Translations under genes and position numbers: made by a program
The notes under the pieces: model-generated
What the model was told of the DNA's origin: nothing
Seen by the model: the letters and a program-made list of their open reading frames with translations, nothing else
Database searches by the model: none
Shown: positions 6,471 to 19,427 of the stretch, in pieces
Position numbering within the stretch: position 1 is the first letter of the stretch
Layout: each line of letters opens with the position of its first letter
From: an uncultured virus (IMG/VR IMGVR_UViG_3300037517_002797)
Taxonomy: Duplodnaviria > Heunggongvirae > Uroviricota > Caudoviricetes
Virus record (IMG/VR): IMGVR_UViG_3300037517_002797
Length of the DNA stretch: 23,993 bases
Reading direction: 5' to 3' (one strand)

Positions 6471-6689
6471 CTACTCCCACAGACCAGTCTTGCGGTTTCC
6501 CACCAATGGGTACTCAAAGTTAAGGTACCCCACTTCAAAGTCACCCGCAAAGCGATTGGTTGAGATGACTGTCGTCATATCAATACCGCAACGCTTGAGG
6601 TCATTGAAGAATGATGAGACAAGATGTGAGTACATCACTCGCTGACGGATCATTTGTCCATCGTGAAACTGAACGATGCTCTTGTTCAT
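6471..6689 (-). CDS. Hypothetical protein
   Basis: ORF track; motif plus GAAAGGAC SD. Confidence 0.75.
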   Translation of the reverse strand: MNKSIVQFHDGQMIRQRVMYSHLVSSFFNDLKRCGIDMTTVISTNRFAGDFEVGYLNFEYPLVGNRKTGLWE

Positions 6690-6781
6690 TGCGTTGTCCT
6701 TTCGTTAGGTTGACGAGACCATTGTACGATCCTGAGTTTGCCAGCCAGCCCGCATAAGCAGGCCAGCCGGCAACTCGTTAC

Positions 6782-7003
6782 TTAGTTGAATTGCTTGGTA
6801 ACCGGGTTGAATTCAAATGGATCGTACTCGTTTGCCGACTTGCTTGGCATCAAACCAGTCAATGTCCATTCAAATGACTCTTTGCTCTCACGAAGTACTT
6901 CGGCAAGCTCTTGAACTTCTTCCCGCATGTCTGTGATCTTGCGGCTCAGTTCGTAGATACGTGCCTCGGCGGCCTTCGGGTTGTTTGCGTACTTCTTTTT
7001 CAT
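6782..7003 (-). CDS. Hypothetical coiled-coil protein
   Basis: ORF track; motif plus GAAAGGAC SD. Confidence 0.75.
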   Translation of the reverse strand: MKKKYANNPKAAEARIYELSRKITDMREEVQELAEVLRESKESFEWTLTGLMPSKSANEYDPFEFNPVTKQFN

Positions 7004-7030
7004 GTTGTCCTTTCGGTTAGGTTGACGATG

Positions 7031-7396
7031 CTACTTTACTGTCTCGAGAACGCTTCCCGCAGCTGCCTCAATGAACTCTTTCAGCACTTGAATGTGCTCA
7101 TCGCTAAGTCCCTGCGTCTCGCCATCCGCATCTGGTGTCCCAGTCAATACAACCGTACCTACGATGTAGTCGGTTTCTTGGCCAAATGACATGTCCCAAA
7201 AGACTTGAGCAATTGGATTGTGCTCGAGTCTAATCATCTTGCCTTCTTCGTTGACCCAAAGCGAGAGGATGTTGCTGAGGTCAATTGCTTGTACCCAGCC
7301 TCCAACCGCAGTCTGCAACACGCTGAGCTCGTCAGGCTTTGAGAAGTCAATTACTTCAACCTCGCCTGCCGGCGTAATCTTAATTCCTTGCTTCAC
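7031..7396 (-). CDS. DUF3846-like protein
   Basis: LSVLQTAVGGWVQ...WVNEEGK...LEHNPIA...DYIVGTVVLTG. Confidence 0.85.
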   Translation of the reverse strand: MKQGIKITPAGEVEVIDFSKPDELSVLQTAVGGWVQAIDLSNILSLWVNEEGKMIRLEHNPIAQVFWDMSFGQETDYIVGTVVLTGTPDADGETQGLSDEHIQVLKEFIEAAAGSVLETVK

Positions 7397-7444
7397 TTTG
7401 TCTCCTTTGTCGTTGGTGAGTTCATTATATGTTCCGAAGTTTTG

Positions 7445-7478
7445 TCAGGCGAGCGCGTGGGGGACGCGCGTCGCTGAC
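7445..7478 (-). terminator. Hairpin after the 7491 ORF
   Basis: gtcaggcgagcgcgt-gggg-acgcgcgtcgctgac. Confidence 0.5.
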
Positions 7479-7490
7479 GGATTGATCTGG

Positions 7491-7667
7491 TTATCTGGTA
7501 ATCGTGATGAGATTATAGACGTCGAAGTCGTCGTTTGAAATCGTCGCGATATCGTTGGTCGTTAGATCGTTCGCGAGAAAATATTCGTACGCGTCGTACG
7601 CGCAGGAATCGTTATCGAGATTGATCGTGTATTTTCCGGATGGAACGCTGATCGTGTAGGTTTTCAT
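7491..7667 (-). CDS. Leaderless hypothetical protein, 58 aa (MKTYTISVPSGKYTINLDND...)
   Basis: Manual translation; TATAAT-AATCTC-ATG. Confidence 0.72.
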   Translation of the reverse strand: MKTYTISVPSGKYTINLDNDSCAYDAYEYFLANDLTTNDIATISNDDFDVYNLITITR

Positions 7668-7726
7668 GAGATTATTATACGTTCCCTAGTTTTACCCGCA
7701 AGGGTTGGTAGGGTAGGGCTTGCGCC

Positions 7727-7924
7727 CTATCCCATGCGCCTCGCTTCGGCCATTGCCTCGGCATGGACCGCGCCGGAGCTCACTTCGCCTACCCACACCG
7801 CATACTCGCTCGAGTTCAGGGTTTCACGTGCTTCGGCGAGTTCGGCCTCTGTCGCATCCAATTCAAGCGTTGGTGGGTTGTCGCCGTGCTTTGCGAGGTA
7901 TCCCCATTCAATTACCACCATCAT
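7727..7924 (-). CDS. Hypothetical protein
   Basis: ORF track, start moved after GAAGGAG; a GCAA-loop hairpin overlaps the stop. Confidence 0.72.
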   Translation of the reverse strand: MMVVIEWGYLAKHGDNPPTLELDATEAELAEARETLNSSEYAVWVGEVSSGAVHAEAMAEARRMG

Positions 7925-8081
7925 TCTCTCCTTCGTCGTTGGTTGTGAGTACATATTACTGTCTCGAGTTTACTACCGCGCTAGGACGTGAGTTTGTTGA
8001 TGCGCGTGCGAAGACGTGCGGCGGCTAACTCGGGACTGTAAAATATAATCGTTATACCAACCCAATACGAAAGCGAAAAAC

Positions 8082-8324
8082 ATGGCACAATACTCCATCA
8101 GCATCGACTATAACGACGAACCATACGAAACCGGCCTAACGCTCGACGAACTAATCGCCCTCTACCTTCCAGCCGGCGTCAGCTTCGTTCGTTACGCCTG
8201 GCGTAACCCGCACCAGCCAAACGACGTCACGATTATCGTAAACGCGAACGACGAAACCGATCTAAACGAACTCTGCGATTACGCCGGCGTAAACGATCCC
8301 GACGAACTCGAGCGCGTTTTATAA
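8082..8324 (+). CDS. Hypothetical acidic protein in inverted cassette
   Basis: ORF track; plus-oriented motif AACTCGGGACTGTAAAAT at ~8027; terminator downstream. Confidence 0.8.
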   Translation: MAQYSISIDYNDEPYETGLTLDELIALYLPAGVSFVRYAWRNPHQPNDVTIIVNANDETDLNELCDYAGVNDPDELERVL

Positions 8325-8351
8325 CGCGAACGCGATCCTCAAACGAACTAA

Positions 8352-8381
8352 CCCGGGCGTCTTACAGCGTCCGGGCTTTTT
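8352..8381 (+). terminator. Intrinsic terminator
   Basis: cccgggcg-loop-cgtccggg followed by cttttt. Confidence 0.8.
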
Positions 8382-8429
8382 CGTGCGCATTTTCAGCTGC
8401 AAAAAACTAGGGTAAGTATAATAATAAAC

Positions 8430-8606
8430 ATGAAAACCTACACAACACTTACATATGTAAACCACCACGACGAAGTGCATTGCGTACAATGCGCAAGCAA
8501 CTCAACCGAATTCCTTATCCCCGCGCCTTACACGTACAACCCGCAAACCGACGCTTACGACCTATTTTGCCTCCTCTGCGACACGCAAATTCACGAAACC
8601 TTATAA
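8430..8606 (+). CDS. Leaderless zinc-finger protein, 58 aa (MKTYTTL...HCVQC...FCLLCDT)
   Basis: Manual translation; AACTAGGGTAAGTATAAT-7 nt-ATG; two CxxC. Confidence 0.75.
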   Translation: MKTYTTLTYVNHHDEVHCVQCASNSTEFLIPAPYTYNPQTDAYDLFCLLCDTQIHETL

Positions 8607-8633
8607 ACTTTACAAACCACGCAAACACGAACC

Positions 8634-8663
8634 AGCCCGGCGCTCATCGCGACCGGGCTTTTT
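8634..8663 (+). terminator. Intrinsic terminator
   Basis: agcccgg...ccgggct followed by tttt. Confidence 0.8.
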
Positions 8664-8674
8664 CGCGTCCCGAA

Positions 8675-8899
8675 TTACATCGGGAACGCTCGCTTGATAT
8701 TCATCTCCGCGTACCACTCGTTCAGGCCCTTTATTTTTTCTTCAACCGCGCTCAGAATTTCCCCGATCTCTTCGCTCGAGAACTCTCCATCACGAACCAG
8801 TTCACGAACCAGCCCACCGTAAACCAGATCAGCTTCGCGATCCGCGCCTTCAATCGTTTCAACGATCTCACACGCCTTATCGTCTAATCTCTCGTCCAT
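8675..8899 (-). CDS. Hypothetical protein; paralog of 12378-12584
   Basis: MDER[LI]DDKA.EI.E..EG.D...VYG.LVRELV..G.F..EEIG.IL..VEEK shared. Confidence 0.85.
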   Translation of the reverse strand: MDERLDDKACEIVETIEGADREADLVYGGLVRELVRDGEFSSEEIGEILSAVEEKIKGLNEWYAEMNIKRAFPM

Positions 8900-8963
8900 C
8901 GTATTCCTTTCGTCGTAGTGATAGGATCATTATACGATCCGGAGTTTTCCCAGCACTGGCAGT

Positions 8964-9032
8964 CTACGGCTGATCGCGCAGCCAAACAGCTGCCATCAGC
9001 GTAAGCGCCGACAGTAGTACTAGCAAGTCCAC
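8964..9032 (-). CDS. Hydrophobic micro-peptide, 22 aa (MDLLVLLSALTLMAAVWLRDQP)
   Basis: Own motif plus AAAGGAG SD, GTG start. Confidence 0.55.
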   Translation of the reverse strand: MDLLVLLSALTLMAAVWLRDQP

Positions 9033-9076
9033 CCGCGCTCCTTTTTTCGTTGTGAGTACATTATACTTTCCCGATT

Positions 9077-9307
9077 TTAGCTTTCGGGAAGCATGTCGCA
9101 GAGCTCGTCGAGCTGGTTGTCGCGGCACATGCTGGCGAAGTCGGCTTCGGTAAAGTTGCTTGGGAAGTTGAGGGTGAATGTGATGAGGTTGTCGTCGGCG
9201 ATGTCGTACGTGAAGTTTGAAAATGTTAGGTCGTGTTCGGCGGCGGCGATAAATAGTGGCTCGAGTGCGCCGCGGTCGGAAGCGCTGGTGATTTGCATTG
9301 GTTTCAT
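9077..9307 (-). CDS. Hypothetical acidic protein
   Basis: ORF track; motif plus GAAAGG SD. Confidence 0.75.
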   Translation of the reverse strand: MKPMQITSASDRGALEPLFIAAAEHDLTFSNFTYDIADDNLITFTLNFPSNFTEADFASMCRDNQLDELCDMLPES

Positions 9308-9364
9308 GTTTTGTGCCTTTCGTCGTTGTGTAAGTTTATTATACTCTCCCGAGTTTTTGTCGCG

Positions 9365-9568
9365 TTACGCGACGCTCACCCAGACTGGTCGGGTATCGGG
9401 ACGGACGGCGTAGGCGACGAAGCGCCCAGCGATTGCGTGTTCGTGAAGTATTGCGCGCTGTTCGTGTGTGAGCAGGCTGAGAAGAAGGTGGTATGAGTCG
9501 TTATGAATAAGGGTGGCTGGTTTATCGGGATTCTGGATTAGTGATGAGTATTCGTTGGTCGATGTCAT
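9365..9568 (-). CDS. Leaderless hypothetical protein (MTSTNEY...)
   Basis: TATAAT-GATTAC-ATG. Confidence 0.7.
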   Translation of the reverse strand: MTSTNEYSSLIQNPDKPATLIHNDSYHLLLSLLTHEQRAILHEHAIAGRFVAYAVRPDTRPVWVSVA

Positions 9569-9612
9569 GTAATCATTATACAATCCCGAGTTTTGTACTC
9601 TTGTTGCCCGCG

Positions 9613-9798
9613 CTACGCATGCGCCGGCATCACGACAATCTGCTCGTCGTATCCCCAAACCGTCTTTCCTGACTCGAGCGTCATGTCAAAGCCTGGTTGA
9701 CCATTCTTGACATCCGCATACTTCCCAGTCACTACACCCGTACGGAGCACGCCGCCCCAGGTCTCGTAACTAATCGTGTCGCCTATTTTGTAATCCAT
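9613..9798 (-). CDS. Small SH3/Tudor-like beta protein; paralog of 14077-14271
   Basis: MDYK[IV]GDT..Y...G...GV.T.K...QPGF.MT...WG.D.QI shared. Confidence 0.82.
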   Translation of the reverse strand: MDYKIGDTISYETWGGVLRTGVVTGKYADVKNGQPGFDMTLESGKTVWGYDEQIVVMPAHA

Positions 9799-9841
9799 GT
9801 TTTGTCCTTTCGTTGTGAGATCATTTTACGATCCGGAGTTC

Positions 9842-10015
9842 CTACCCCAGCTCTTTCATCAACCGCGCAACCTCGACGGCAGTCAACTTCTCTTCACGCT
9901 TATACACCCGTACCAATTCTTCCATCGCTTCGTACGGGTCGCAGTGCGAGTACTCGTATTTAACCATCTCGAGAATGTCACTCGCCATTTGCTTGATGTC
10001 TTTTGTCGTTGTCAT
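9842..10015 (-). CDS. Leaderless hypothetical protein, 57 aa (MTTTKDIKQMASDILE...)
   Basis: Manual translation; TAGAAT-AAGACC-ATG. Confidence 0.72.
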   Translation of the reverse strand: MTTTKDIKQMASDILEMVKYEYSHCDPYEAMEELVRVYKREEKLTAVEVARLMKELG

Positions 10016-10033
10016 GGTCTTATTCTACTTTCC

Positions 10034-10294
10034 CTAGAGGTCCTCAAGCTCTTTCACGAAGCCGGCGATAACCCATTCTTCGTAATCTTCAACCGCGCGC
10101 TCGGTCGCATTGCCGATGATCCTCGCAAGGCCTTTCGCCGTGTCAACCCGCTTGCGCAGGTAGGCTAGGCGCTCGCCGTCATCTTCGTTCTCGATGCTTT
10201 CAATCCGCTTGAGGATTGATAGCACTTCGCCGCCGATAGCTGTCTCGAGCCAGGTTAGTTGGGTCAGTGTAAGTTCAACGCTGTACTTTTTCAT
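10034..10294 (-). CDS. Leaderless hypothetical protein
   Basis: ORF track; TAGAAT-GACGAC-ATG. Confidence 0.78.
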   Translation of the reverse strand: MKKYSVELTLTQLTWLETAIGGEVLSILKRIESIENEDDGERLAYLRKRVDTAKGLARIIGNATERAVEDYEEWVIAGFVKELEDL

Positions 10295-10327
10295 GTCGTC
10301 ATTCTACTTTCTTGAGTTTTAGAGTCT

Positions 10328-10498
10328 TCACCCGCGCCTTGGCGGGCACTCAAGTAATCGGTTGATTACCTGAGACATCATCTGCTTCGTGAGAGCTGGG
10401 TCTTCAGCTGTCCGCAACAGCCACATGTTGTTTACTTCCCGCTCGAGTAGCAGCCGCTTTACCAGCTGCCTCTGCGCTGTCGTTGGTCCGTATTCCAT
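10328..10498 (-). CDS. Leaderless hypothetical protein, 56 aa (MEYGPTTAQRQLVKRLLLERE...)
   Basis: Manual translation; TAGAAT-GGTGAC-ATG. Confidence 0.72.
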   Translation of the reverse strand: MEYGPTTAQRQLVKRLLLEREVNNMWLLRTAEDPALTKQMMSQVINRLLECPPRRG

Positions 10499-10521
10499 GT
10501 CACCATTCTACTTTCCTGAGT

Positions 10522-10752
10522 TCAGTCCCAGCGGGACGGTGGACTGTAGTCCTTGCTCACCGTCTTGCTGCATTGCGGGCATTCCGCCTCCACATCATCG
10601 CAACCGCGCTCGTCAACCGTGACATCTGATTCAGTCCACTCGTGATCGCAGTCACTGCAGAAGAAGTCCATGTCTACTTCAATGTCGTTGTACCCCGGGA
10701 GGTCTCTTTCATAGCAACCCGGTGGTAAGTTGAATCCTGATCCAAAGCCCAT
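10522..10752 (-). CDS. Zinc-ribbon protein
   Basis: FNLPPGC, CSDCDHEW...CPQCSK; motif plus AAGGAG SD. Confidence 0.8.
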   Translation of the reverse strand: MGFGSGFNLPPGCYERDLPGYNDIEVDMDFFCSDCDHEWTESDVTVDERGCDDVEAECPQCSKTVSKDYSPPSRWD

Positions 10753-10803
10753 TGTTCTCTCCTTGTGTCGTCGTGTATGAGATCATTATAGGTTCCGGAG
10801 AAC

Positions 10804-10953
10804 CTATTCGGCCCACCGCTTGCCTCGGCAGGCTTGCCGTGCGGCGATCCGCTTCTTGTTGGGGACTTGAGTCGCCCGCAGGATATTGCGGTCGGCAAAC
10901 GCCTGGCGGTCGCCTTCGGTCCATCGTGTATTTGGTTTGGTCGCTGTTTTCAT
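10804..10953 (-). CDS. Leaderless basic protein, 49 aa (MKTATKPNTRWTEGDRQAFAD...)
   Basis: Manual translation; TATAAT-GATCTC-ATG. Confidence 0.72.
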   Translation of the reverse strand: MKTATKPNTRWTEGDRQAFADRNILRATQVPNKKRIAARQACRGKRWAE

Positions 10954-10978
10954 GAGATCATTATACATTCCTGAGTTT
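10953..10978 (-). promoter_or_regulatory. Exemplar copy of the cassette promoter (AACTCAGGAATG TATAAT GATCTC A)
   Basis: Perfect TATAAT preceded by TG; no conserved -35 across copies; conserved CTCAGGA just upstream. Confidence 0.85.
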
Positions 10979-11213
10979 ACTGCGCCTCGATGTCCTGGCG
11001 CAGTACCCGCAACTTCATTGCGAAGATGAGGACATCGTCATCTTCTTTCAGCTGGTCGGTCGCTTTCTCAAGCTCGAGCGCAAACTCATCGCGGAAGATG
11101 AGTTCATACTCAAGACAGTAATTGGCCTCGTAGATCGCGTTGAACGTGTCATGGAGGTCAAGTTGGCCTTCGATGCGCTCGATGACATCGAGCTTGGTCT
11201 CTTTCGTGTTCAT
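10977..11213 (-). CDS. Hypothetical protein
   Basis: ORF track; start moved to the ATG after GAAAGGA. Confidence 0.75.
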   Translation of the reverse strand: MNTKETKLDVIERIEGQLDLHDTFNAIYEANYCLEYELIFRDEFALELEKATDQLKEDDDVLIFAMKLRVLRQDIEAQ

Positions 11214-11258
11214 GGGATTCCTTTCGCCGTGGTGTGATCTCATCTTACTTTCCAGAGT

Positions 11259-11378
11259 TTACCACCCTGTCCTTGCGTACCAGTAGTGGTAGTGGCGGGC
11301 GCTCTTGATCCCGCGTCGGATTCCGGCTTTCTTGGTCCAGAAGATTCCGATCTGCACTGCACCGATGAATCGTTTCAT
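11259..11378 (-). CDS. Basic peptide, 39 aa (MKRFIGAVQIGIFWTKKAGIRRGIKSARHYHYWYARTGW)
   Basis: Manual translation; motif plus SD; paralogs at 11679 and 11821. Confidence 0.75.
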   Translation of the reverse strand: MKRFIGAVQIGIFWTKKAGIRRGIKSARHYHYWYARTGW

Positions 11379-11428
11379 TTTGGGTCCTTTCGTCGTGGTG
11401 TACGAGATCATTATACATTCCTCAGAAC

Positions 11429-11653
11429 GCTGAGGACGCCACAGCGGAGGTAGCTAACCTCACCGCAAGTTCCCCGTCGGGCGTTGCGAACTTGAACCGT
11501 ATGTAAGAGGAGGGCGGATGTCGTGAGAGGAGGACGGATACCGTGGTCCCGGGAACCGCGTAGAGCCTTATCTTCTGAACAGAGCCTTATCATTCAGTGA
11601 CGTCTCGTTCGCAACCTTGCGGCTGCTATGATGTCCTCAACGTGCTGAGGCAT
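11429..11653 (-). ncRNA. Putative structured ncRNA, family A copy 1 (~225 nt)
   Basis: Own promoter, no SD leader; collinear homology and covarying helices with 14322-14544. Confidence 0.8.
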
Positions 11654-11678
11654 GTACTCATTTTACTTTCCGGAGTTT

Positions 11679-11771
11679 CTACCACTTATGGAAGTTAGTG
11701 GCGGTGCGGAATCCGTGACGGATTCCATACGCACGGGAGCATGCGATGAACATTCTCAGTCTCAGAATCAT
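11679..11771 (-). CDS. Basic peptide, 30 aa (MILRLRMFIACSRAYGIRHGFRTATNFHKW)
   Basis: Manual translation; motif plus SD; GIRxG motif. Confidence 0.68.
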   Translation of the reverse strand: MILRLRMFIACSRAYGIRHGFRTATNFHKW

Positions 11772-11820
11772 TACTGGTCCTTTCGTCGTGGTGATGAGTT
11801 AATTATACTTTCCGGAGTTT

Positions 11821-11940
11821 CTACCACCGGGTCCTTGGAGCCCAGTAGTAGAAGTGGCGGCCCGTTTTGACGCCGGCGCGGATGCCGTTGGTACGTGCCA
11901 CCCCAATCCCAATCTTGATTGCGCGGATGATTGCTTTCAT
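11821..11940 (-). CDS. Basic peptide, 39 aa (MKAIIRAIKIGIGVARTNGIRAGVKTGRHFYYWAPRTRW)
   Basis: Manual translation; motif plus SD; paralog of 11259. Confidence 0.75.
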   Translation of the reverse strand: MKAIIRAIKIGIGVARTNGIRAGVKTGRHFYYWAPRTRW

Positions 11941-12000
11941 TTCGTGTCCCTTCGTCGTGGTGATGAGTACATTTTACTTTCCCGAGATTACGTGCCGCCC

Positions 12001-12159
12001 TTATCGGGCGGCCACGCGGACCTCGAGATCCTGCCGGACTTGGGGAGCCTGCGCCACCCAGAACTTGTTGCAGTTTTCACGTGAACCTGAGAACCTGATC
12101 AACTTGAACTTGCGATCATAAACCTCGTGGGCTCGGGTTGATGGCTTGGTCGTTTTCAT
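12001..12159 (-). CDS. Hypothetical protein, 52 aa; paralog of 6257-6406
   Basis: MKTTKPSTRAHEVYDRKFKLIRFSGSRENCNKFWVAQAPQVRQDLEVRVAAR. Confidence 0.8.
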   Translation of the reverse strand: MKTTKPSTRAHEVYDRKFKLIRFSGSRENCNKFWVAQAPQVRQDLEVRVAAR

Positions 12160-12207
12160 CTTTCGTCCTTTCGTCGTAGGTATGAGATCATTATACTTTC
12201 CTGAGTT

Positions 12208-12324
12208 TTAGTTGGATTGCTCCCACAGGTGAAGATCGGCGTTCTCTGGCGCTGGACAGGGTACGTCGTAATCCATCCAATCTTGATACGTGAATCCGCA
12301 TTTACAGGTTTGATCTGAATCCAT
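12208..12324 (-). CDS. Small Cys/His protein (MDSDQTCKCG...)
   Basis: Start after GAAAGGAC. Confidence 0.68.
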   Translation of the reverse strand: MDSDQTCKCGFTYQDWMDYDVPCPAPENADLHLWEQSN

Positions 12325-12377
12325 ATTCAGTCCTTTCGTCGTTTGAACTTGTGAGATCATTATACTTTCCTGAGTTT

Positions 12378-12584
12378 TTACATCCCCATCTTCTCGTACC
12401 ACTCACTCAGGATCTTGACCTTTTCTTCCACCTCGTTCAAGATCATTCCGATCTCTTCGTTCGTGAATTTTCCTTCTTGAACCAGTTCACGAACTAACTC
12501 GCCGTAAACTTGATTCACGTCAAGATCTGATCCTTCCATGATCTCGCAGATCTCGCTCGCTTTATCGTCTATTCTTTCGTCCAT
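12378..12584 (-). CDS. Hypothetical protein; paralog of 8675-8899
   Basis: ORF track; alignment by eye. Confidence 0.85.
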   Translation of the reverse strand: MDERIDDKASEICEIMEGSDLDVNQVYGELVRELVQEGKFTNEEIGMILNEVEEKVKILSEWYEKMGM

Positions 12585-12633
12585 TATTTTCCCTTCGTCG
12601 TGGTTACGAGATCATTATACGATCCCGAGTTTT

Positions 12634-12699
12634 AGTACTGGGTGGATAACTCAGACGCCGCCCAGTGCGACGAGGTTAGAGCAGTGTTATCCAACTGCG
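12634..12699 (-). ncRNA. Putative small RNA cassette G (~65 nt)
   Basis: Own promoter, no usable ORF; two hairpins plus TGGATAAC/GTTATCCA complementarity. Confidence 0.5.
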
Positions 12700-12722
12700 A
12701 TGATCATTATAAGTTCCCGAGT

Positions 12723-12890
12723 TCAGTCAGCTAGTCGCATGGCCGCTTCCATTGCGTCTTCGTGGTCAGCGCCGCAGTCTACCGCCGCTTCATACTGGGC
12801 CTGCCGCCTAGGCGTTAGGGCCTCAAACTCAAGGCGGGCCTTTCGGACCTTCGGGTTACTTGCCTCTCCAAATGCTGTGATCGTCGTCAT
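12723..12890 (-). CDS. Leaderless hypothetical protein, 55 aa (MTTITAFGEASNPKVRKARLEFE...)
   Basis: Manual translation; TAAAGT-AGTGGC-ATG. Confidence 0.72.
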   Translation of the reverse strand: MTTITAFGEASNPKVRKARLEFEALTPRRQAQYEAAVDCGADHEDAMEAAMRLAD

Positions 12891-12914
12891 GCCACTACTT
12901 TACATTCCTGAGTT

Positions 12915-13094
12915 CAGCGACGGCGCGTGTCAGCCGGCGACCATTCCGGCCGATCACGCGTCTCGCTTGCGTGCTAGCGCGCACGACGAAGAACGCGCTA
13001 GCAACTGCCCGTCAACAGTTCTTGGGCCTATGGCAGGCCGGGCCGCTCGAAAGCGTGCCCGTCATGCCTTTGCGGCCCTATGGCAGGCCGGGAC
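12915..13094. other. Structured intergenic element with direct repeat
   Basis: Several long inverted repeats; cctatggcaggccggg occurs twice. Confidence 0.6.
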
Positions 13095-13226
13095 TTATTC
13101 CCAGTCGCCATCATCATCGTCATACGACGGCTCGGCGTAGTAGTCCGCATAGCGGTCTTCCTGCGCCTTGATGATGCTTGCCTCTTCGTTCCAGTGAGCA
13201 TAGTCACTGATGCTTGGGTTGGTCAT
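13095..13226 (-). CDS. Acidic protein, 43 aa (MTNPSISDYAHWNEEA...DDDDGDWE)
   Basis: Manual translation; motif plus GAAGGGAC SD. Confidence 0.72.
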   Translation of the reverse strand: MTNPSISDYAHWNEEASIIKAQEDRYADYYAEPSYDDDDGDWE

Positions 13227-13293
13227 TGCTTGGTCCCTTCGTTGTTCGTTGATGAGATCATTATAGGATCCTGAGATCCCGTCAGCCGAAGCC

Positions 13294-13527
13294 TTACGAC
13301 TGGGACCCGTAGGCCCAGCCGTAAGTTGCTTTGTAGAAGTCTTCCATCCAGGCCAGTGCGCCCTTCTTGGTGTTCTTCGGGCACCCGTATTCCTGTGCCA
13401 CTCTGATCAATGAGACCCCCCGTACATATTTCATGCCCGTTTTGATCTCGAGGCGTAGCCCGCCGATCAGTAGGCACATTCGGTAGTGCTCGATGCCTTC
13501 CTGCGTGTCAATTGCCATTATTGTCAT
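13294..13527 (-). CDS. Hypothetical protein
   Basis: ORF track; motif plus SD. Confidence 0.78.
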   Translation of the reverse strand: MTIMAIDTQEGIEHYRMCLLIGGLRLEIKTGMKYVRGVSLIRVAQEYGCPKNTKKGALAWMEDFYKATYGWAYGSQS

Positions 13528-13577
13528 TGCTTGTCCTTTCGTCGTAGGTTGATGAGATTATTTTACAATCCTGAGAA

Positions 13578-13823
13578 TTAGCAGACCCAGTTGACCGCAA
13601 TTACTGATGACTTGAAGTCATAGTCATGACTAATTTTAGCCGAGACCATGTTCCAAAAGTCTTCTGCTTGGACTTCAGGTCCATCAACAATTTCAATCTC
13701 GGGACCAAACCAACCCGCAAAAGCTGCAGCTGGCTCGAAGTCAAATCCGACAATTTTTCCGTACTTTACTCGAGCGACAAAGCTTCCAGGAATATCTACT
13801 CGTGTCATTTCATCTTGGTCCAT
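13578..13823 (-). CDS. Hypothetical protein
   Basis: ORF track; motif plus SD. Confidence 0.78.
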   Translation of the reverse strand: MDQDEMTRVDIPGSFVARVKYGKIVGFDFEPAAAFAGWFGPEIEIVDGPEVQAEDFWNMVSAKISHDYDFKSSVIAVNWVC

Positions 13824-13862
13824 TGTTGTCCTTTCGTCGTTGGTGAGTACATTATACGTTCC

Positions 13863-14030
13863 CTAGATCGAGATCCAGAGAACGTAGCCAGAGTCATTGG
13901 TCTTGTTGTGGTGTGCGCATGCTTCCACCATCTCACGAGCGCGCTCGAGCGTGAGGCCAGTTCGGTAGACTTCGCTACCACCCGCATCGCCGATCATGAC
14001 CGTGTATGTCTGTTCCTGTGTGGCTTTCAT
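13863..14030 (-). CDS. Hypothetical protein (MKATQEQTYTV...)
   Basis: Start after GAAGGGAC. Confidence 0.72.
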   Translation of the reverse strand: MKATQEQTYTVMIGDAGGSEVYRTGLTLERAREMVEACAHHNKTNDSGYVLWISI

Positions 14031-14076
14031 GTGATGTCCCTTCGTCGTTGTTGAGCTCATTGTACAGTCCTGAGTT

Positions 14077-14271
14077 TTACACTTCGGCTGGGCGAACCTC
14101 AAGAATCTGTGAGTCCAGTCCCCAAAAGCCACTACCGACTTCTGTGGTCATTACAAAGCCTGGCTGACAGCCGTGGCCGACAATTGCATGCTTTGCTGTT
14201 ATGACACCTATCTTAACTCGTGTGCTTCCAAATGGTGAGTACACGACCGTGTCCCCTACTTTATAGTCCAT
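14077..14271 (-). CDS. Small SH3/Tudor-like beta protein; paralog of 9613-9798
   Basis: ORF track; alignment by eye. Confidence 0.82.
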   Translation of the reverse strand: MDYKVGDTVVYSPFGSTRVKIGVITAKHAIVGHGCQPGFVMTTEVGSGFWGLDSQILEVRPAEV

Positions 14272-14321
14272 GCGTTTTGTCCCTTCGTCGTTGGTGTGAG
14301 ATCATTATATGTTCCTCAGTT

Positions 14322-14544
14322 CGCCGGGAAGCAACATAGCTGGAGGAGCTACCTCCCTACCCTTCGCCCGTCGGCGGCCTTGAACGATACAACGTGTGCG
14401 AGAAGTGGACGGATAACTAAGAGGAGGACGGATGGTCAATCCCGGGATTGATCAGAGCCTTATCGTTATGCAGAGCCTTAACTTGCAGGGACGGGTCGTT
14501 CGCAACCAGGTAGTTGCTATGTTGTTTCCCGGCGTACCGGGTAT
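14322..14544 (-). ncRNA. Putative structured ncRNA, family A copy 2 (~223 nt)
   Basis: Own promoter; 18-bp terminal helix; homologous to 11429-11653. Confidence 0.8.
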
Positions 14545-14570
14545 GCTATCATTCTACATTCCGTAGTTTG

Positions 14571-14642
14571 ATGAGCGCCCTGGAACTTTTACCCTGGGCC
14601 AGGGCCTTCCATAATCGGAAGGTGTGGGTCGTTCCAACCCGC
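14571..14642 (-). ncRNA. Putative small RNA cassette D (~72 nt, three hairpins)
   Basis: Own promoter, no SD; GGGTTG/CGACCC, CCTTCC/GGAAGG, GCCCTGG/CCAGGGC. Confidence 0.55.
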
Positions 14643-14646
14643 GAGA

Positions 14647-14769
14647 CTATTTTACTTTCCTGAGATTCAGGTAGATCATTGTGAGAACCGCAAGGCTCGC
14701 TCCAATTATCATGAAGCTTACGCTATCAATGAACTCTCCTGAGATAACAATGTCTTGAGCTGCTAACAC
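14647..14769 (-). CDS. Small membrane protein, 40 aa
   Basis: GTG after GAAAGGAC; hydrophobic C-terminal half. Confidence 0.65.
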   Translation of the reverse strand: MLAAQDIVISGEFIDSVSFMIIGASLAVLTMIYLNLRKVK

Positions 14770-14816
14770 TTTGTGTCCTTTCGTCGTGATGAGATCATTA
14801 TACATTCCTGAGTTTG

Positions 14817-14957
14817 CTACTCCCAGGTTATCCACCCTTCAGGTGTCACGTAGGTTGGAAGGCCCATCTCCTTCAGGTCTTCCCAAGTGTAGCTGCCGCC
14901 TGACACTTTGTTGATGTGATTCACGTAGCCAATGTTGGCGAGTGCTTCGTCTGTCAT
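14817..14957 (-). CDS. Hypothetical protein, 46 aa (MTDEALANIGYVNHINK...)
   Basis: Manual translation; motif plus SD. Confidence 0.72.
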   Translation of the reverse strand: MTDEALANIGYVNHINKVSGGSYTWEDLKEMGLPTYVTPEGWITWE

Positions 14958-14993
14958 TGCTGTCCTTTCATCGTGGTCGGTTGTACGAGACCA

Positions 14994-15185
14994 TTATAAG
15001 TTCCGGAGTTTGCGCTTCAACTCAGGAGAGACTTCATCTGTGATGAATGTCCCGATCTCGACAACAGTGTCGCTTTCGCCTGCGCGCTCGCGATCCGCAA
15101 GCCAGTCGGTGGCTGCTTGCTTGAGAGCAACCACGAGGCTGTAGTGCTCCGCATTGAACGTGACTTCAACTGTCTGTAGTTTCAT
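14994..15185 (-). CDS. Hypothetical protein
   Basis: ORF track; motif plus SD. Confidence 0.75.
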   Translation of the reverse strand: MKLQTVEVTFNAEHYSLVVALKQAATDWLADRERAGESDTVVEIGTFITDEVSPELKRKLRNL

Positions 15186-15227
15186 GTGTGTCCTTCCGTC
15201 GTGTGTTGAATCATTTTACGTTCCCGA

Positions 15228-15456
15228 GAACAGAGACTTAGCGAGATGGTTCAGACGCCCCTTTCGGGATTGAGCCTTAGGCAGTCCGTGTGGCCACACG
15301 CCACCTCGCATATCTCCGTTCCTCACAGGTGGGAGGACGAGTGTCGGCCTAGTGGTCGCCATGCCACTTTGGTTAGTAAAGCCCCCTGCAGGAGGAATAC
15401 CGCTCACTCATGACCCGTCCGCGCTGTGCGGCTAGGCTTGCCCTCGCCACCTGTGC
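15228..15456 (-). ncRNA. Putative two-domain structured ncRNA B (~230 nt)
   Basis: Own promoter, no SD leader; CACAGGTGG/CCACCTGTG, GCCTAG/CTAGGC, GAACGGAGA/TCTCTGTTC, GCGAGGTGG/CCATCTCGC; G-U pairs work on the minus strand. Confidence 0.72.
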
Positions 15457-15478
15457 GAGATCATTTTACATTCCCGAG

Positions 15479-15763
15479 TTAGTCCCAGATCCCTGGGTGA
15501 CCTTCCTCGCGGATCGGTTCAATGTCGCACTCGGCGAGCAGACTTTCGGCCGTTGCGCCTTCGCCGCCATACCACGTGCAGAACCCGTCATTGTCCCACT
15601 CGTCGAGCCTGACCGTCACGACTGGCCATCCGCCACCCGGGCCTTCAGCCTGGTCAATTCTTACCCATGCCGATGGGCAAAGCTTTCGCAGGGCCTCAAG
15701 GGAATGTGTGAGTGTTGGGTAGTCATCGCTAAATGCGACATCCACTTCGTATGTAAGTTTCAT
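15479..15763 (-). CDS. Hypothetical protein (GPGGGWPVV motif)
   Basis: ORF track; motif plus SD. Confidence 0.78.
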   Translation of the reverse strand: MKLTYEVDVAFSDDYPTLTHSLEALRKLCPSAWVRIDQAEGPGGGWPVVTVRLDEWDNDGFCTWYGGEGATAESLLAECDIEPIREEGHPGIWD

Positions 15764-15807
15764 TTTCTTCCTTCCGTCGTTGTGAGATCATTTTACAATC
15801 CCGAGTA

Positions 15808-15952
15808 AAATTTGGAAGGCCGCTACTCATACTTGCGTGCTTGGCAGGGACCAGCCGGTGTCCGGCCAGTATGCTCTTGTGCTTGATGTGTGCTTTGCTT
15901 AGCAGGGATTACCCTGTACCTTCCTGGTCGGTGTTACCCGACCAATCCTTGT
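15808..15952 (-). ncRNA. Putative structured ncRNA C (~145 nt)
   Basis: Own promoter; TGGTCGG/CCGACCA, GGAAGGT/GCCTTCC, CAGGG/CCCTG, CATACT/AGTATG, GGCCGG/CCGGCT. Confidence 0.65.
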
Positions 15953-15956
15953 GAGA

Positions 15957-16298
15957 CTATTTTACAGTCCCGAGTTCTTGGACTTGCCACGGACCTTCGC
16001 CCTTCGCAATGCTGTCGCGGACCATGAATCCGTATGTCTGGACACGGTTGTCCATTGGCTTGCCAAATTCCTTTTCAGCGCCGTTGCACTTATAGCCAGG
16101 CAGCCAACCATTGACGCACGTCCCGTGCAGTGTTGCTGTTACCCAATACGCATTCTCGAGGTCAGTCTCGTCCCCGCCCAATGTCGTGCAGCGTGCCTTG
16201 TACACGCCGGCTGGTACAAGCACTTCGTAGTACCAAGAGGCAGTCTCGCCTGCCGACTTGTGGTACTTCGTTTCTTCTTTGACAGTGAATGTAAGCAC
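15957..16298 (-). CDS. Hypothetical protein (in-frame leaderless ATG also at 16325)
   Basis: ORF track; GTG after GAAAGGAC. Confidence 0.78.
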   Translation of the reverse strand: MLTFTVKEETKYHKSAGETASWYYEVLVPAGVYKARCTTLGGDETDLENAYWVTATLHGTCVNGWLPGYKCNGAEKEFGKPMDNRVQTYGFMVRDSIAKGEGPWQVQELGTVK

Positions 16299-16348
16299 TT
16301 GATGTCCTTTCGTTGTTTCGTTCATGCCACCATCTTACTTTCCTGAGT

Positions 16349-16531
16349 TTAGTCTTGGTACAGACCTTCCGCAAGAAGTTCAGCATGCTCAACGAGCGCT
16401 GACCAGAAGTCTTCAACTCCCTCTGGATCCTTGCTGTCCTCAATTGGGATTATGAGCCTTGGCATCTCGGCGAGCCAGACGTGTACTGCCATGTCTATGC
16501 GCTCGACGCGGAATGGGGTTCCTGTGATCAC
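16349..16531 (-). CDS. Hypothetical protein
   Basis: ORF track; motif plus SD. Confidence 0.72.
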   Translation of the reverse strand: MITGTPFRVERIDMAVHVWLAEMPRLIIPIEDSKDPEGVEDFWSALVEHAELLAEGLYQD

Positions 16532-16580
16532 TGTTTGTCCTTTCGTGTTGGGTTGATGCTGTTACTTTACATTCCGTAGT

Positions 16581-16751
16581 TTACGGACATGAACGATTTG
16601 CGTCACTTGCGTGCTTGCGTAGTTCAAAGCCGCAGTTGTCGCAGATGTCTGATGGGCCGTACGCGCTCGACGGCAGTCTGTCTCGCAGCCGAGTCCCTGA
16701 CGCTTTCTTCTTTCCGTACCTGTACGCTAGGTATGTAGTTAGTAGTCCCAT
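16581..16751 (-). CDS. Leaderless protein, 56 aa, with CxxC-H-C (MGLLTTYLAYRYGKKKA...)
   Basis: Manual translation; TAGACT-GATGGC-ATG. Confidence 0.72.
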   Translation of the reverse strand: MGLLTTYLAYRYGKKKASGTRLRDRLPSSAYGPSDICDNCGFELRKHASDANRSCP

Positions 16752-16760
16752 GCCATCAGT

Positions 16761-16967
16761 CTACTTTCCCGAGTCTTCTCGTGGGAAGAGTACTCGGATG
16801 ATCTCTGCCGAAGGTGCTTCTGGAATCTCGTTGACACTGAGCACGTCAATTGATGTCGGCTCAAGAGTCTGTTGGATGAAAGACCATGCCCGTTCAGCAA
16901 TTTGGTCCTCCATGCCGCTGTTTTCTTCAGTGACACGGAAGACCATGCGGACTTCGTACTCGGTCAT
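16761..16967 (-). CDS. Hypothetical protein
   Basis: ORF track; ATGA overlap with upstream gene. Confidence 0.72.
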   Translation of the reverse strand: MTEYEVRMVFRVTEENSGMEDQIAERAWSFIQQTLEPTSIDVLSVNEIPEAPSAEIIRVLFPREDSGK

Positions 16968-17356
16968 GCATCTACCAAGAAGCGCTTGACGCTTTCTTGG
17001 AAGAATGACATGCCACCCGTTTCCAAGTTCTTCACGTAGATCGGATACTTTGATCGGCTCGTTGCGATGCCTGCAAATGCGTAGTCAGTCCCGTTGACCG
17101 AGAACTTCTTGCCAAGCAAGCCAGCCGGCAATCCGTATGAACTGTGCAATGTCCTGTATGACTGGGCTTCAATTGTTGACTCGTTGATCCCGTTCTCGCC
17201 GATAGTTACCGGAGTTGCGTCAACGGTGAGCGAGTACGAGATGCCGTACTTGGTCCGTGACTTGGCTCGAGCCATGCCGTGCCGCGCAAAGATTGCATCG
17301 GCCGCAGCGTAGATCTCTTCGCTGATTGCGAGTGCTGTCTTTTTGTCTACTTCCAT
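16964..17356 (-). CDS. Hypothetical phage protein (LGKKF..NG..Y...G....RSKYPI)
   Basis: ORF track; motif plus SD. Confidence 0.82.
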   Translation of the reverse strand: MEVDKKTALAISEEIYAAADAIFARHGMARAKSRTKYGISYSLTVDATPVTIGENGINESTIEAQSYRTLHSSYGLPAGLLGKKFSVNGTDYAFAGIATSRSKYPIYVKNLETGGMSFFQESVKRFLVDA

Positions 17357-17395
17357 GATTGTCCTTTCGTGTTGTGTGAGTACATCTTACATTCC

Positions 17396-17686
17396 TTAGT
17401 TCTCATAGAACACGAAGGCATCCATTGCTTGATTCCATGTCTGGTCAAACTCTTGTTCAGATGATTGCCTAAAGCCGAAGTTGTCATTGTGCTCGGAAGC
17501 ATGAACCAGGACAGCTGCTCGAGCGAGCGCTGTACCGAGCGAGACATACTTTTCTTCCCAAGCATTGGCAACATAGTCGCCCCAAAGAACTTTGAAGCCA
17601 TCTGTCTCGAGCAAGATGAAGACCTCTGTATTGTCTCCGCGGCTCTGGAATAGCACCTTGTCTGTTTCTTTGATTAGTAAGCTCAT
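17396..17686 (-). CDS. Hypothetical protein
   Basis: ORF track; start moved after GAAGGA. Confidence 0.78.
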   Translation of the reverse strand: MSLLIKETDKVLFQSRGDNTEVFILLETDGFKVLWGDYVANAWEEKYVSLGTALARAAVLVHASEHNDNFGFRQSSEQEFDQTWNQAMDAFVFYEN

Positions 17687-17744
17687 AACTTTCCTTCCGT
17701 CGTTGTGGTTGATGTAGTCATTATACATTCCTTAGAAGGACGTC

Positions 17745-17942
17745 CTACTCGCTGTCTAGCGAGTAAGCGTGGACGTAGCCATGACGCTCGTCATGGAGGG
17801 TCTCCATCTTGAAGTCAATCAGGATCCGCAGGAACTGAGCGTACGCATCGCTTGGATTGATGAGTCCTCGGTTGAGTTGATTGGATACTTTGGTAATCGC
17901 TTCGTGAGCGTCACCGAGTGAGTTTGGATTGTGCTTGAACAT
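17745..17942 (-). CDS. Hypothetical protein
   Basis: ORF track; start moved after GAAAGGAC. Confidence 0.75.
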   Translation of the reverse strand: MFKHNPNSLGDAHEAITKVSNQLNRGLINPSDAYAQFLRILIDFKMETLHDERHGYVHAYSLDSE

Positions 17943-17992
17943 TGCTTGTCCTTTCGTCTTGGGTATGTAGTCATTATACATTCCTGAGAATG

Positions 17993-18145
17993 CTAGTCCT
18001 CAATCTCTGAAGCGTCAAACTCAAAGTCGCTGATCTTGATTGCCCTGTCACGGACGAGTTCAGCTGCTACTTCTTCGGCATTCTCTTTACTCGTGGCGTC
18101 AACATCCACGCAAGCGTAGATTGATACTCGGTAGTTGGTTGTCAT
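17993..18145 (-). CDS. DpnD/PcfM-like small protein, 50 aa (MTTNYRVSIYACVDVDATSKENAEEVA...)
   Basis: Manual translation; YxVxI...VxVxAxSxExA pattern. Confidence 0.68.
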   Translation of the reverse strand: MTTNYRVSIYACVDVDATSKENAEEVAAELVRDRAIKISDFEFDASEIED

Positions 18146-18192
18146 TGTTTCTCCATCGTTGTTCATGGTGTAATTGTATAGTCCCGAGAATT

Positions 18193-18244
18193 GGCGCGAG
18201 CACAGCAGGGACGAAAGGGGTTATACCTGCTGCGCTCGAGCGCC
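18193..18244 (-). terminator. Long hairpin after the 18248 ORF
   Basis: ggcgcgagcacagcagg...cctgctgcgctcgagcgcc. Confidence 0.5.
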
Positions 18245-18247
18245 GGG

Positions 18248-18661
18248 CTAGACGGTGACCAACCGTCCAGGCTTAGACTCATCAACGGTGGGGGCACCCT
18301 TGAGAGTCACGTGAATGTCAAACGGCCAGAATACTCGCCCGTCCTCGAGCAGCACGCTTTGCTTGCCTAAAATGAATCCTGGCGAGCAAGGGCACGTGCA
18401 ACCTGCGTATTGAGACCACGAGAACTTCTCGAGGCTAACCTGCGGGAGGTAAGACGCAAACAGCGGCTTGATGATCTTCTTCCACTCGGTGTGTGGCCGG
18501 CGAGTGCGATTCATCATGTCTTCTGCGATGTTGAATGTCTCGTCTGCCCAGACATACATCCGAGGTGCTACTGAGTAGCCACGCTTGTCGTTGTGGTTGT
18601 ATCGGCGTTCTTTGATTACTACCTCTGCTCCTGGGAGCAGGAACTTCGCTTGATTGGTCAT
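18248..18661 (-). CDS. Hypothetical protein with WSQYAGCTCPCSPGF motif
   Basis: ORF track; start moved after GAAAGGAC. Confidence 0.8.
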   Translation of the reverse strand: MTNQAKFLLPGAEVVIKERRYNHNDKRGYSVAPRMYVWADETFNIAEDMMNRTRRPHTEWKKIIKPLFASYLPQVSLEKFSWSQYAGCTCPCSPGFILGKQSVLLEDGRVFWPFDIHVTLKGAPTVDESKPGRLVTV

Positions 18662-18767
18662 TGCTTGTCCTTTCGTATTGGTTGGTGAGTCCATTATATA
18701 TTCCGTAGTTTGTGACTGGCTGTACCGGGGTTCGCTTTCCGGCCAGCCAGCCGCAACTTGGGATGGC

Positions 18768-19097
18768 TTACTTGGCTTGAAGCACCGTGTATGGTGACTC
18801 AACCAATGATGCCATGTACGCCTCGGGGAACGCTGTCTTGAGAAGATCACGATCAATCTTGCTCATGTTGCGATGTGAGACCCGGACACGCTCGACTCCA
18901 TTGATGAAGCCGATGTTGTTGCCCTTGAGTGCTTCACGGATCGCTGTCTCCGCTGCTTGCTTCTTAGCCTCGAGAGCCTTGATGGCTGCCTTGGCTTCGT
19001 TGAACTCAACGATCTTGGCTTCCATTGCTGGATCCAAGTCGGTGATGATCTCGATGATCTCGACTTTAGAAGTCGTGGTCACTGTTGATGTGGTCAT
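18768..19097 (-). CDS. Coiled-coil protein resembling the C-terminal part of YqaJ-type recombinase / Gam-like proteins
   Basis: Coiled coil followed by SKIDRDLLKTAFPEAY; family call tentative. Confidence 0.65.
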   Translation of the reverse strand: MTTSTVTTTSKVEIIEIITDLDPAMEAKIVEFNEAKAAIKALEAKKQAAETAIREALKGNNIGFINGVERVRVSHRNMSKIDRDLLKTAFPEAYMASLVESPYTVLQAK

Positions 19098-19144
19098 TGC
19101 TTGTCCTTTCGGTATGGGTTGATGTGATCATTATACTTTCCTTA

Positions 19145-19223
19145 GAAACGGCCCGGCTACTTTGGCTACAACCGACTTGACACGTGGTCCTCTATGTTGC
19201 GCGGTTTTGCCGGACCGCTTCGT
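19145..19223 (-). ncRNA. Putative small RNA cassette E (~80 nt)
   Basis: Own promoter; 13-bp terminal helix GAAGCGGTCCGGC/GCCGGGCCGTTTC with two G-U; no ORF. Confidence 0.62.
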
Positions 19224-19241
19224 GGAATCAGTATACTTTCC

Positions 19242-19427
19242 TTAGAAAGCTAAAGCTACGTGCTCGACATGAGAGTCGGCTGAATGGTAGACCAGTTTAG
19301 AGTCTATGCCTTCGCAGAGCTCATTGAGCTTGTCAATGAAGTCTTCGAGCAGCATGTCAGCTGCATCGCCATCCTCGGCTTCAAATTGGTCAAATGTCAG
19401 TACTACTGACGCACAGTATTTGTACAT
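19242..19427 (-). CDS. Hypothetical acidic protein
   Basis: ORF track; start moved after GAAAGGAC. Confidence 0.72.
   Translation of the reverse strand: MYKYCASVVLTFDQFEAEDGDAADMLLEDFIDKLNELCEGIDSKLVYHSADSHVEHVALAF

Follow-up and report, generated by a model that had tools for sequence, protein, structure and literature searches.

A new structured RNA family with repeated unpaired motifs and a self-complementary hairpin tip, duplicated in the genome of an uncultured phage

Two paralogous copies of a structured non-coding RNA (ncRNA) lie on the minus strand of a 23,993-nucleotide (nt) stretch of DNA from an uncultured virus of the Caudoviricetes (IMG/VR record IMGVR_UViG_3300037517_002797); this whole stretch is called the window below. 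Judged from sequence and predicted structure, the RNA belongs to an apparently new family outside Rfam. The family comprises about 20 viral contigs and 24 metagenome contigs, collected with motif scans and a covariance model. Its members combine freely covarying helices with near-invariant unpaired motifs and a hairpin that ends in a palindrome. We favour a role in trans, as a multivalent and probably dimeric RNA that decoys a conserved host factor, a reading that appears plausible, if short of probable.

Two copies in the window

A preliminary description of this DNA, made from the letters alone, had proposed two diverged copies of one structured RNA, each in its own promoter cassette. Both stretches are indeed present on the minus strand as paralogs of a single structured RNA, and each stands directly behind the promoter core that is repeated along the window. 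Copy 1 spans 11427–11643 and copy 2 spans 14322–14534, with bounds set by covariance model R1 (221.5 bits, E 1e-83, and 224.4 bits, respectively); both are full length, with helices P1, P2a, P2b and P5 and motifs m1 and m2 all in place. Every collinear block listed in the preliminary description recurs in both copies: CATAGCA, GGTTGCGAACGA, TAAGGCTCT (twice), TCCCGGGA, ATCCGTCCTCCTCT, a second ATCCGYCC, GTTCAAG, CCGACGGG and GAGG..TAGCT..CCTCC. Mean column identity, promoters included, is 81% in a pairwise alignment. The copies have no open reading frame (ORF) in common; a 19-codon ATG frame in copy 1 has ATA in its place in copy 2.

Folded as single sequences, both copies join their ends in a long helix and are moderately more stable than shuffled sequences. 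The minimum free energy is -84.6 kcal/mol for copy 1 (z -2.77, 5 of 200 shuffles as good) and -78.3 kcal/mol for copy 2 (z -2.54, 3 of 200). The terminal helix pairs in either copy despite the different sequences, as had been claimed; it measures 19 base pairs (bp) in copy 2, and an outer extension of P1 in copy 1 reaches 11420–11650.

Structure and covariation

Strong covariation, seen both in plain MAFFT alignments and in an R1 alignment compared with shuffles, bears out the proposal of a conserved structured ncRNA family. From plain MAFFT alignments, RNAalifold derived 47 pairs, 25 of them compensatory, for 10 group-A sequences, and 48 pairs, 17 of them compensatory, for seven group-B or distant sequences. 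Model R1 was built from the MAFFT/RNAalifold alignment of the 10 group-A sequences. The R1 alignment comprises 27 matches, of which 26 are distinct. Standard pairs fill 94.9% of its 1093 pair cells, against 66.9% in shuffles and 40–47% when the strands are slid by 1–3 columns, and 37 of 46 pairs have double changes, with none of 500 shuffles reaching any of the five measures; it counts against these figures that the alignment was fitted to the model and leans to its structure, and the MAFFT counts serve as the independent check. A smaller sequence set gave the same covariation picture.

The individual helices are supported to different degrees. Double changes occur in 17 of 17 pairs of P1, in 5 of 6 pairs of P2a (96.6% paired), in all seven pairs of P2b (89.2% paired), in all three pairs of P5, which has an invariant GACG loop, and in 4 of 5 pairs of P6. 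Helix 5, of 3 bp, is weak (78% paired), and a predicted m1a-m1b pairing is invariant and unsupported. P5 is a CCC-GACG-GGG hairpin at 11472–11481 in copy 1 and a GCC-GACG-GGC hairpin at 14366–14375 in copy 2. P6 reads GAGGU-UAGCU-ACCUC at 11447–11461 and GGAGG-UAGCU-CCUCC at 14342–14356, all on the minus strand. Across the supported helices G-U cells number 81 and A-C cells 11, which implies that the fold belongs to the minus-strand RNA, or at least to the minus strand in single-stranded form.

Two smaller stems of the preliminary description fared less well. The local hairpin GCAGCC-GCAA-GGTTGC is paired in 64.9% of cells versus 59.4% in shuffles and shows no family-wide covariation; its strands pair over long range as P2a and P2b (12 of 13 pairs with double changes), although the local hairpin is still possible in many members. 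Since its register shifts among members, the CTGAAT/GTTCAG stem that surrounds the first motif has only weak support.

Conserved unpaired motifs

The columns conserved in all groups are two copies of GAUAAGGCUCU (m1) and two of AYCCGYCCUC (m2), the latter sometimes present three times per molecule. These are the most conserved columns of the alignment and, in line with the duplicated single-stranded motifs proposed earlier, lie in no supported pair. The m1 copies are 7–8 nt apart in most members (start-to-start spacing 18 versus 19 nt in the two window copies) and the m2 copies about 20 nt apart. The L151/L165 type has one diverged copy of m1, and a related stretch containing CCGUC often precedes the first m1.

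In copy 1, m1a lies at 11581–11591 (minus strand), an exact match to a motif that is invariant in nearly all members, and m1b, invariant in 17 of 17 aligned sequences, lies at 11562–11572. They are followed by m2a (AUCCGUCCUCCUC, 11527–11539, no mismatch, core AYCCGYCCUC) and m2b (AUCCGCCCUCCUC, 11507–11519, one mismatch). The corresponding minus-strand elements of copy 2 are m1a (GUUAAGGCUCU, 14472–14482, one mismatch), m1b (GAUAAGGCUCU, 14454–14464), m2a (14421–14433, no mismatch) and m2b (AUCCGUCCACUUC, 14402–14414, two mismatches).

Near-invariant junction bases beside freely covarying helices are also the usual signature of a tertiary core, and the main rival of the decoy, less probable than it, is that the motifs form such a core in a ribozyme, a ligand-binding RNA, a ribonucleoprotein subunit or an RNA-only assembly like ROOL or GOLLD. 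The duplicated m1 and m2, the invariant GACG and the self-complementary tip described below would fit a pseudo-symmetric or multimeric build, and GACG is complementary to the CGUC found in most m2 motifs. Member L166, however, lacks any CGUC. The spacing of m1a and m1b, the length of the P4 hairpin and the flanks of m2 vary much, some members carry a 55-nt insert, and neither an Rfam ribozyme or riboswitch match nor an expression platform or conserved partner gene was found.

The sequence of m2 suggests another role, as the seed of a base-pairing small RNA (sRNA), with CCUCCUC directed against the host Shine-Dalgarno sequence GGAGG, so that host translation would be shut off and phage genes with GAAAGGA would escape. 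CCUCC is present in m2 of most members, the phage genes of the window use GAAAGGA or GAAGGGA sites, and C-rich seeds are used by sRNAs of Gram-positive bacteria that lack Hfq. This reading is unlikely: the invariant part of m2 is AYCCGYCC-UC and not CCUCC (variants include CCACUUC, CCUCGCC and CCUCUGC), m1 is left unexplained, and an sRNA of the seed type does not usually have a kissing tip and a stalk of about 215 nt.

Other resemblances considered for the motifs, without recourse to real host sequences, were set aside, each being a partial match in which the invariant core differs. They concerned the 3' tail or 1400 region of 16S ribosomal RNA (for m2), the 5' end of 16S (for m1), and the anticodon loop, boxA, conserved region V (CR-V) of RNase P and the phage -10 region.

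A palindromic hairpin tip

All members carry a hairpin, P4, between m1b and m2a, and in each of the 16 distinct P4 spacers examined the longest perfect palindrome (6–18 nt) is at its tip. Seven tip palindromes were found (CCCGGG, CCGCGG, AACUAGUU, UCUAGA, GCUAGC, CCUAGG and CCAUGG), and in the insert-bearing members UCUAGA or CCUAGG tips the corresponding hairpin. Both window copies carry CCCGGG: copy 1 within UCCCGGGA (11543–11558, minus strand; CCCGGG at 11548–11553), and copy 2 within UCAAUCCCGGGAUUGA (14436–14451, minus strand), a perfect 16-nt palindrome whose length none of 1000 shuffles reached. CCCGGG itself is ordinary in the window, with 5 matches versus 2.74 expected.

The central four bases of the tip cannot pair inside one hairpin, and a random tetramer would be self-complementary in 1 of 16 cases. 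We infer from the repeated exchange of one self-complementary tip for another that the tip is probably under constraint. Most likely, the tip joins two RNA molecules by a kissing loop. Tips differ between paralogs of the same genome (CCGCGG and ACUAGU in G004, UCUAGA and GCUAGC in G005), so their dimers would stay apart.

Palindromes together with repeats could also mark a site that acts as DNA, such as an origin or a partition-type site at which proteins bind iterons (the 11-mers and 13-mers) and palindromes. The direct repeats, the perfect palindrome of 16–18 bp in some members and the presence of two copies per genome would agree with it. It is nevertheless highly improbable: compensatory changes keep five helices, the excess of G-U over A-C cells makes the fold strand-specific, and a promoter stands directly upstream. 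Moreover, several P4 stems require G-U pairs and are imperfect as DNA palindromes, which points to RNA hairpins instead.

Transcription units

The copy 1 promoter (11653–11680, minus strand; consensus AAACTCCGGAAAGTAAAAT) has its -10 element, TAAAAT, at 11665–11660, and the copy 2 promoter (AAACTACGGAATGTAGAAT, 14544–14571, minus strand) follows the same consensus as the rest of the array, with TAGAAT at 14556–14551. The RNA starts a few bases after the promoter in both copies. From this arrangement we infer that each copy is independently transcribed, the start sites being putative. In the lineage of the window, promoters stand on both sides of the RNA and no terminator is visible. In members of the copy 1 type, bases after the presumed start pair with bases before the next promoter, so that P1 grows to a maximum of 26 bp. 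Group B members have a U-rich tract into which the final P1 strand continues, read from the sequence as UUUUUGUUUU in L171 and UUUUUCAUUUU in L194; this combination would fit an intrinsic terminator and favours a separate transcription unit. Because some 170 nt lie inside P1, the helix and its U-run escaped simple terminator and promoter scans of two distant members.

These features also bear on whether the RNA is a cis element of early transcripts, namely an RNase III stalk, an attenuator or an insulator between cassettes. P1 is a near-perfect duplex of 17–26 bp, the window's lineage lacks a terminator before the next promoter, and the outer helix of copy 1 extends with its 3' strand into the upstream element of that promoter. 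Other cassettes of the array do without the RNA, however, and distant members have their own promoter-like sequence and U-run. One contig has its two copies on opposite strands, and about 110 nt of conserved sequence far exceed the needs of a processing site; a cis element is therefore quite improbable. Genes downstream of the RNA vary among members, as seen in the sequences and by neighbour clustering (400 nt of neighbouring sequence were covered for the metagenome members), which implies that it is not the leader of one particular gene. A riboswitch or cis leader was rejected on this ground and because the window has a further, separate promoter behind the RNA.

Proposed function

The covarying stalk, the probable dimer tip and the invariant motifs without supported pairing together lead us to read the RNA as a multivalent decoy. 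Its 5' and 3' ends would pair into a long stalk (P1, P2a and P2b) bearing P5 and P6, and the stalk would close a central region of about 110 nt in which two near-invariant m1 and two to three m2 motifs are presumably held unpaired. The self-complementary tip of P4 would link two molecules by a kissing loop, and the dimer so formed would expose eight or more sites and titrate a conserved host factor early in infection. This factor might be an RNA, a nuclease or a protein that binds single-stranded RNA, and the outcome host take-over or counter-defence.

Several observations weigh against this interpretation. Near-invariant unpaired bases are equally typical of the tertiary cores of ribozymes and aptamers. 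Each palindrome taken alone is unremarkable, since 0–46% of shuffles reach the same length, and palindromes of 6 nt are common enough in spacers of this kind (23–46% of shuffles); the case for a dimer thus rests on the position of the palindromes and on their repeated replacement. Searches of neighbouring proteins and of complements identified no partner for the RNA. Complements of m1 and m2 in the window do not exceed chance, comprising the RNAs themselves and chance-level near-matches, and the combined motif complement, sought in a sample of 401 genomes from the phylum to which G006 belongs (the source of locus L214, labelled Coriobacteriales), had 2 matches against 4 for a reversed control. 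No conserved adjoining RNA-binding protein was found. In the single RNA library found, an RNA-labelled metatranscriptome run (X1), a fraction of 0.12 of the sampled words was present, and contigs of relatives (85–99% alike) cover parts of both copies plus neighbouring genes; these contigs show no ends, strand or level and so are not evidence for a discrete transcript.

The domain scan of the 48-kilobase (kb) record that contains the window, which covered 63 of its 85 called ORFs, revealed no RNA-binding domain, and conserved neighbours elsewhere have no informative domains except KTSC and DUF3846. Basic mini-proteins beside copy 1 were considered as a partner and rejected, since their three paralogs occur solely in the window's lineage and not beside distant members. 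A bolder form of the decoy, which we regard as doubtful, is an RNA-only weapon in which a symmetric kissing-loop dimer disables an actinobacterial RNA-binding machine with its two kinds of motif. Such a machine could be an immune nuclease directed at RNA, a toxin RNase, or a factor of transcription or translation, for instance; the RNA would then serve counter-defence or host take-over and need no phage protein partner.

Early regions of phages have been searched almost exclusively for proteins, and here a strongly covarying RNA occurs in one or two copies in diverged phages of freshwater-type actinobacteria. If it is a decoy, it would indicate a conserved host factor whose neutralisation these phages depend on, and it would be an RNA-only addition to the devices of phage take-over and anti-defence. 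Even without a function, the family is a clean new one, and its covariance model can be used for structural work and for the annotation of viral metagenomes.

Members and distribution

BLAST against GenBank phages, with 4 kb of the window in near mode and copy 1 in distant mode, returned no homolog, and two distant members gave chance matches only at E ≤ 10. The viral, metagenome and cellular collections were therefore scanned with combinations of the conserved motifs. Among the 119 stretches listed by a first loose scan, one was real, being identical to copy 1. In viral contigs, 13 of 20 stretches and then 16 of 16 resembled relatives, as judged by eye on alignments or sequences, with some of them later confirmed by the model. 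In metagenome contigs, 24 of 31 stretches were relatives (17 confirmed by the model and 7 identical or nearly identical in the RNA to confirmed ones), and the remaining 7 had no model match. A scan with both m1 motifs added 8 viral loci; among its 16 new loci, 7 were without a model match and 1 had a weak partial match only.

The covariance-model search of phage and metagenome contigs that the preliminary description had called for recovered diverged members. R1 aligns every group over its full length, at scores between 20 and 226 bits, and distant members (20–113 bits) align across R1 positions 1–216. At least four sequence groups can be distinguished. The first consists of the two window types and close variants. 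An insert group carries 40–55 additional nt (L225, L234, L237, L218, L221 and the second copy of G004), and the GC-rich group B is without P6 (L140, L166, L171, L174, L194, L200, L217 and L243). More distant forms are L151/L165 and L186/L190, the latter of about 320 nt with a terminal helix of 41–44 bp. In L190 (245–570), and also in L186, the GAUAAGGCUCU motifs are spaced wider and the tip is CCAUGG.

Two copies each are present in the window's record, G001, G004 and G005, and one copy in five other contigs, one of them estimated to be 79% complete. The G005 paralogs L231 and L224 lie on opposite strands about 13.7 kb apart; elsewhere in G005 there are weak partial model matches to the motif region alone, which look like chance. 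In a collection of bacteria and archaea with one genome per species, all 7 pattern matches were rejected by the model (7.8 bits at best). DSL-LC01, the closest complete genome, has no copy (best BLAST E 2.08; best model match 6.7 bits, E 0.23, partial). The RNA family is accessory: it is missing from DSL-LC01, its copy number varies, and it lies in the variable early region of a large phage, among early cassettes whose array is shuffled.

Comparison with known RNAs

The search against Rfam that the preliminary description had proposed, run with Rfam 15 (4227 models) at gathering thresholds, gave no match in the whole window. At E ≤ 10, four weak and unrelated matches appeared in 11000–15000, none of them over either copy, and at E ≤ 1 eight loci with distant members gave none. 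ARAGORN found no transfer RNA or transfer-messenger RNA gene in the window.

In its presumed function the RNA comes closest to sponge or decoy RNAs, and as an ornate phage-borne orphan to ROOL and GOLLD. It resembles the sponges CsrB and RsmZ, and the decoy idea of 6S RNA, in presenting several short motifs, unpaired or in loops, on a scaffold. Membership in the 6S family was rejected, as the consensus stalk encloses several hairpins and lacks both a second long stem and the bubble between two helices that marks 6S, and there is no Rfam 6S match. A CsrB/RsmZ type, with many GGA in loops, was also rejected, since the conserved motifs differ: they measure 10–14 nt and are of two kinds (GAUAAGGCUCU and AYCCGYCCUC), two each, rather than GGA. 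Unlike CsrB and RsmZ, the RNA here is encoded by a phage, and actinobacteria are not known to have CsrA.

Phage RNA decoys that counter immunity based on or directed at RNA, and that copy a host repeat of known sequence, include pseudo-ToxI antitoxin repeats and RNA anti-CRISPRs. The present RNA is likewise a phage ncRNA in an accessory region with repeated units, and it too would neutralise a host factor by mimicry; unlike them, it holds short motifs in an elaborate fold instead of tandem 36-nt units. No host counterpart of its motifs was found in the cellular genome collection or in the 401 genomes of the G006 phylum. A ToxI-like antitoxin was rejected because motifs of 11–14 nt lie about 19–20 nt apart in one fold, with no tandem repeats of 34–36 nt; the small neighbour proteins have no nuclease domains in the G000 record and selected neighbours. 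An ncRNA associated with a retron or a reverse transcriptase (RT) was rejected as well, there being no RT domain in the 63 scanned ORFs or in 16 conserved neighbours.

Retroviral dimerisation initiation sites (DIS) dimerise by kissing loops, and the pRNA of phage phi29 has interlocking loops. The 6-nt self-complementary tip, kept through paired substitutions, is similar to these loops, whereas the RNA is unrelated to either in sequence, size and genome context. A role in packaging is unlikely, given that this phage packages with a large terminase of the T4 type and that DSL-LC01 lacks the RNA.

ROOL and GOLLD are large ornate RNAs, often of phages or prophages, that reportedly form RNA-only multimers (bioRxiv 10.1101/2024.12.08.627333). 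The RNA described here is similar in being a phage-associated, strongly covarying orphan for which self-association is plausible. It differs in its size (about 215 nt versus about 500–800 nt), in having no Rfam match, and in that its tip alone suggests self-association. Fremin et al. (2023) predicted 10,006 candidate structured RNAs (csRNAs) from IMG/VR (PMC10690425). The RNA may be among these unnamed csRNAs and in that sense have been listed before; the motif strings are absent from the readable supplementary tables of that study, and six contig numbers are absent from its file 4. No published description, name or function was found in those supplements, where the motif strings were checked, or in one general search.

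Genome setting

The window comes from a viral metagenome record of 48 kb with an estimated completeness of 35%, and genes lie on the minus strand. For the large terminase, identity is 89% with DSL-LC01, an Actinomycetia phage assembled from a metagenome (PMC10611076), and about 61% with large Microbacterium phages. Two WhiB proteins and one DUF3039 protein encoded in the record point to an actinobacterial host.

An array of tiny genes spans about 6.4–19.6 kb of the window, every gene behind the same promoter-like sequence, AAACTCRGGAAWGTATAATGATCTCA. The promoter-cassette array (6432–19556, minus strand) contains at least 28 near-identical units of this sequence, followed by ACGACGAAAGGAC and a start codon, and the promoter core has 28 matches in the window versus 1.19 expected. 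Each cassette drives a tiny gene of 30–113 amino acids (aa) or a non-coding stretch. A CTCRGGAA block upstream of the extended -10 element suggests a promoter type specific to the phage.

Two pairs of paralogous small genes lie on the minus strand within the array, MDYK[VI]GDT.. at 14077–14271 and 9613–9798, and MDER[IL]DDKA.. at 12378–12584 and 8675–8899; they indicate that cassettes duplicate in this region, just as the RNA did. X1 contigs, compared with 11000–15000 of the window, join across whole cassettes (14652 to 14801 and 11654 to 11817, for example), which points to gain and loss of cassettes between relatives. Promoter cassettes without an ORF are present on the minus strand at 14560–14648 and 12625–12703, with folds that are unremarkable against shuffles (z -0.37 and -1.34); the former lies directly upstream of copy 2, a position kept in several relatives. 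A GC-rich non-coding stretch at 12905–13094 (minus strand) follows a 43-aa gene and holds CCCGGCCUGCCAUAGG twice. Its fold has a free energy of -98.3 kcal/mol (z -3.9, none of 200 shuffles as good), and it is possibly another structured RNA. Finally, copy 1 is flanked by the basic mini-protein paralogs (30–39 aa, ..GIRxGxKxxRHxxYW..RxxW), encoded on the minus strand at 11259–11378, 11679–11771 and 11821–11940.

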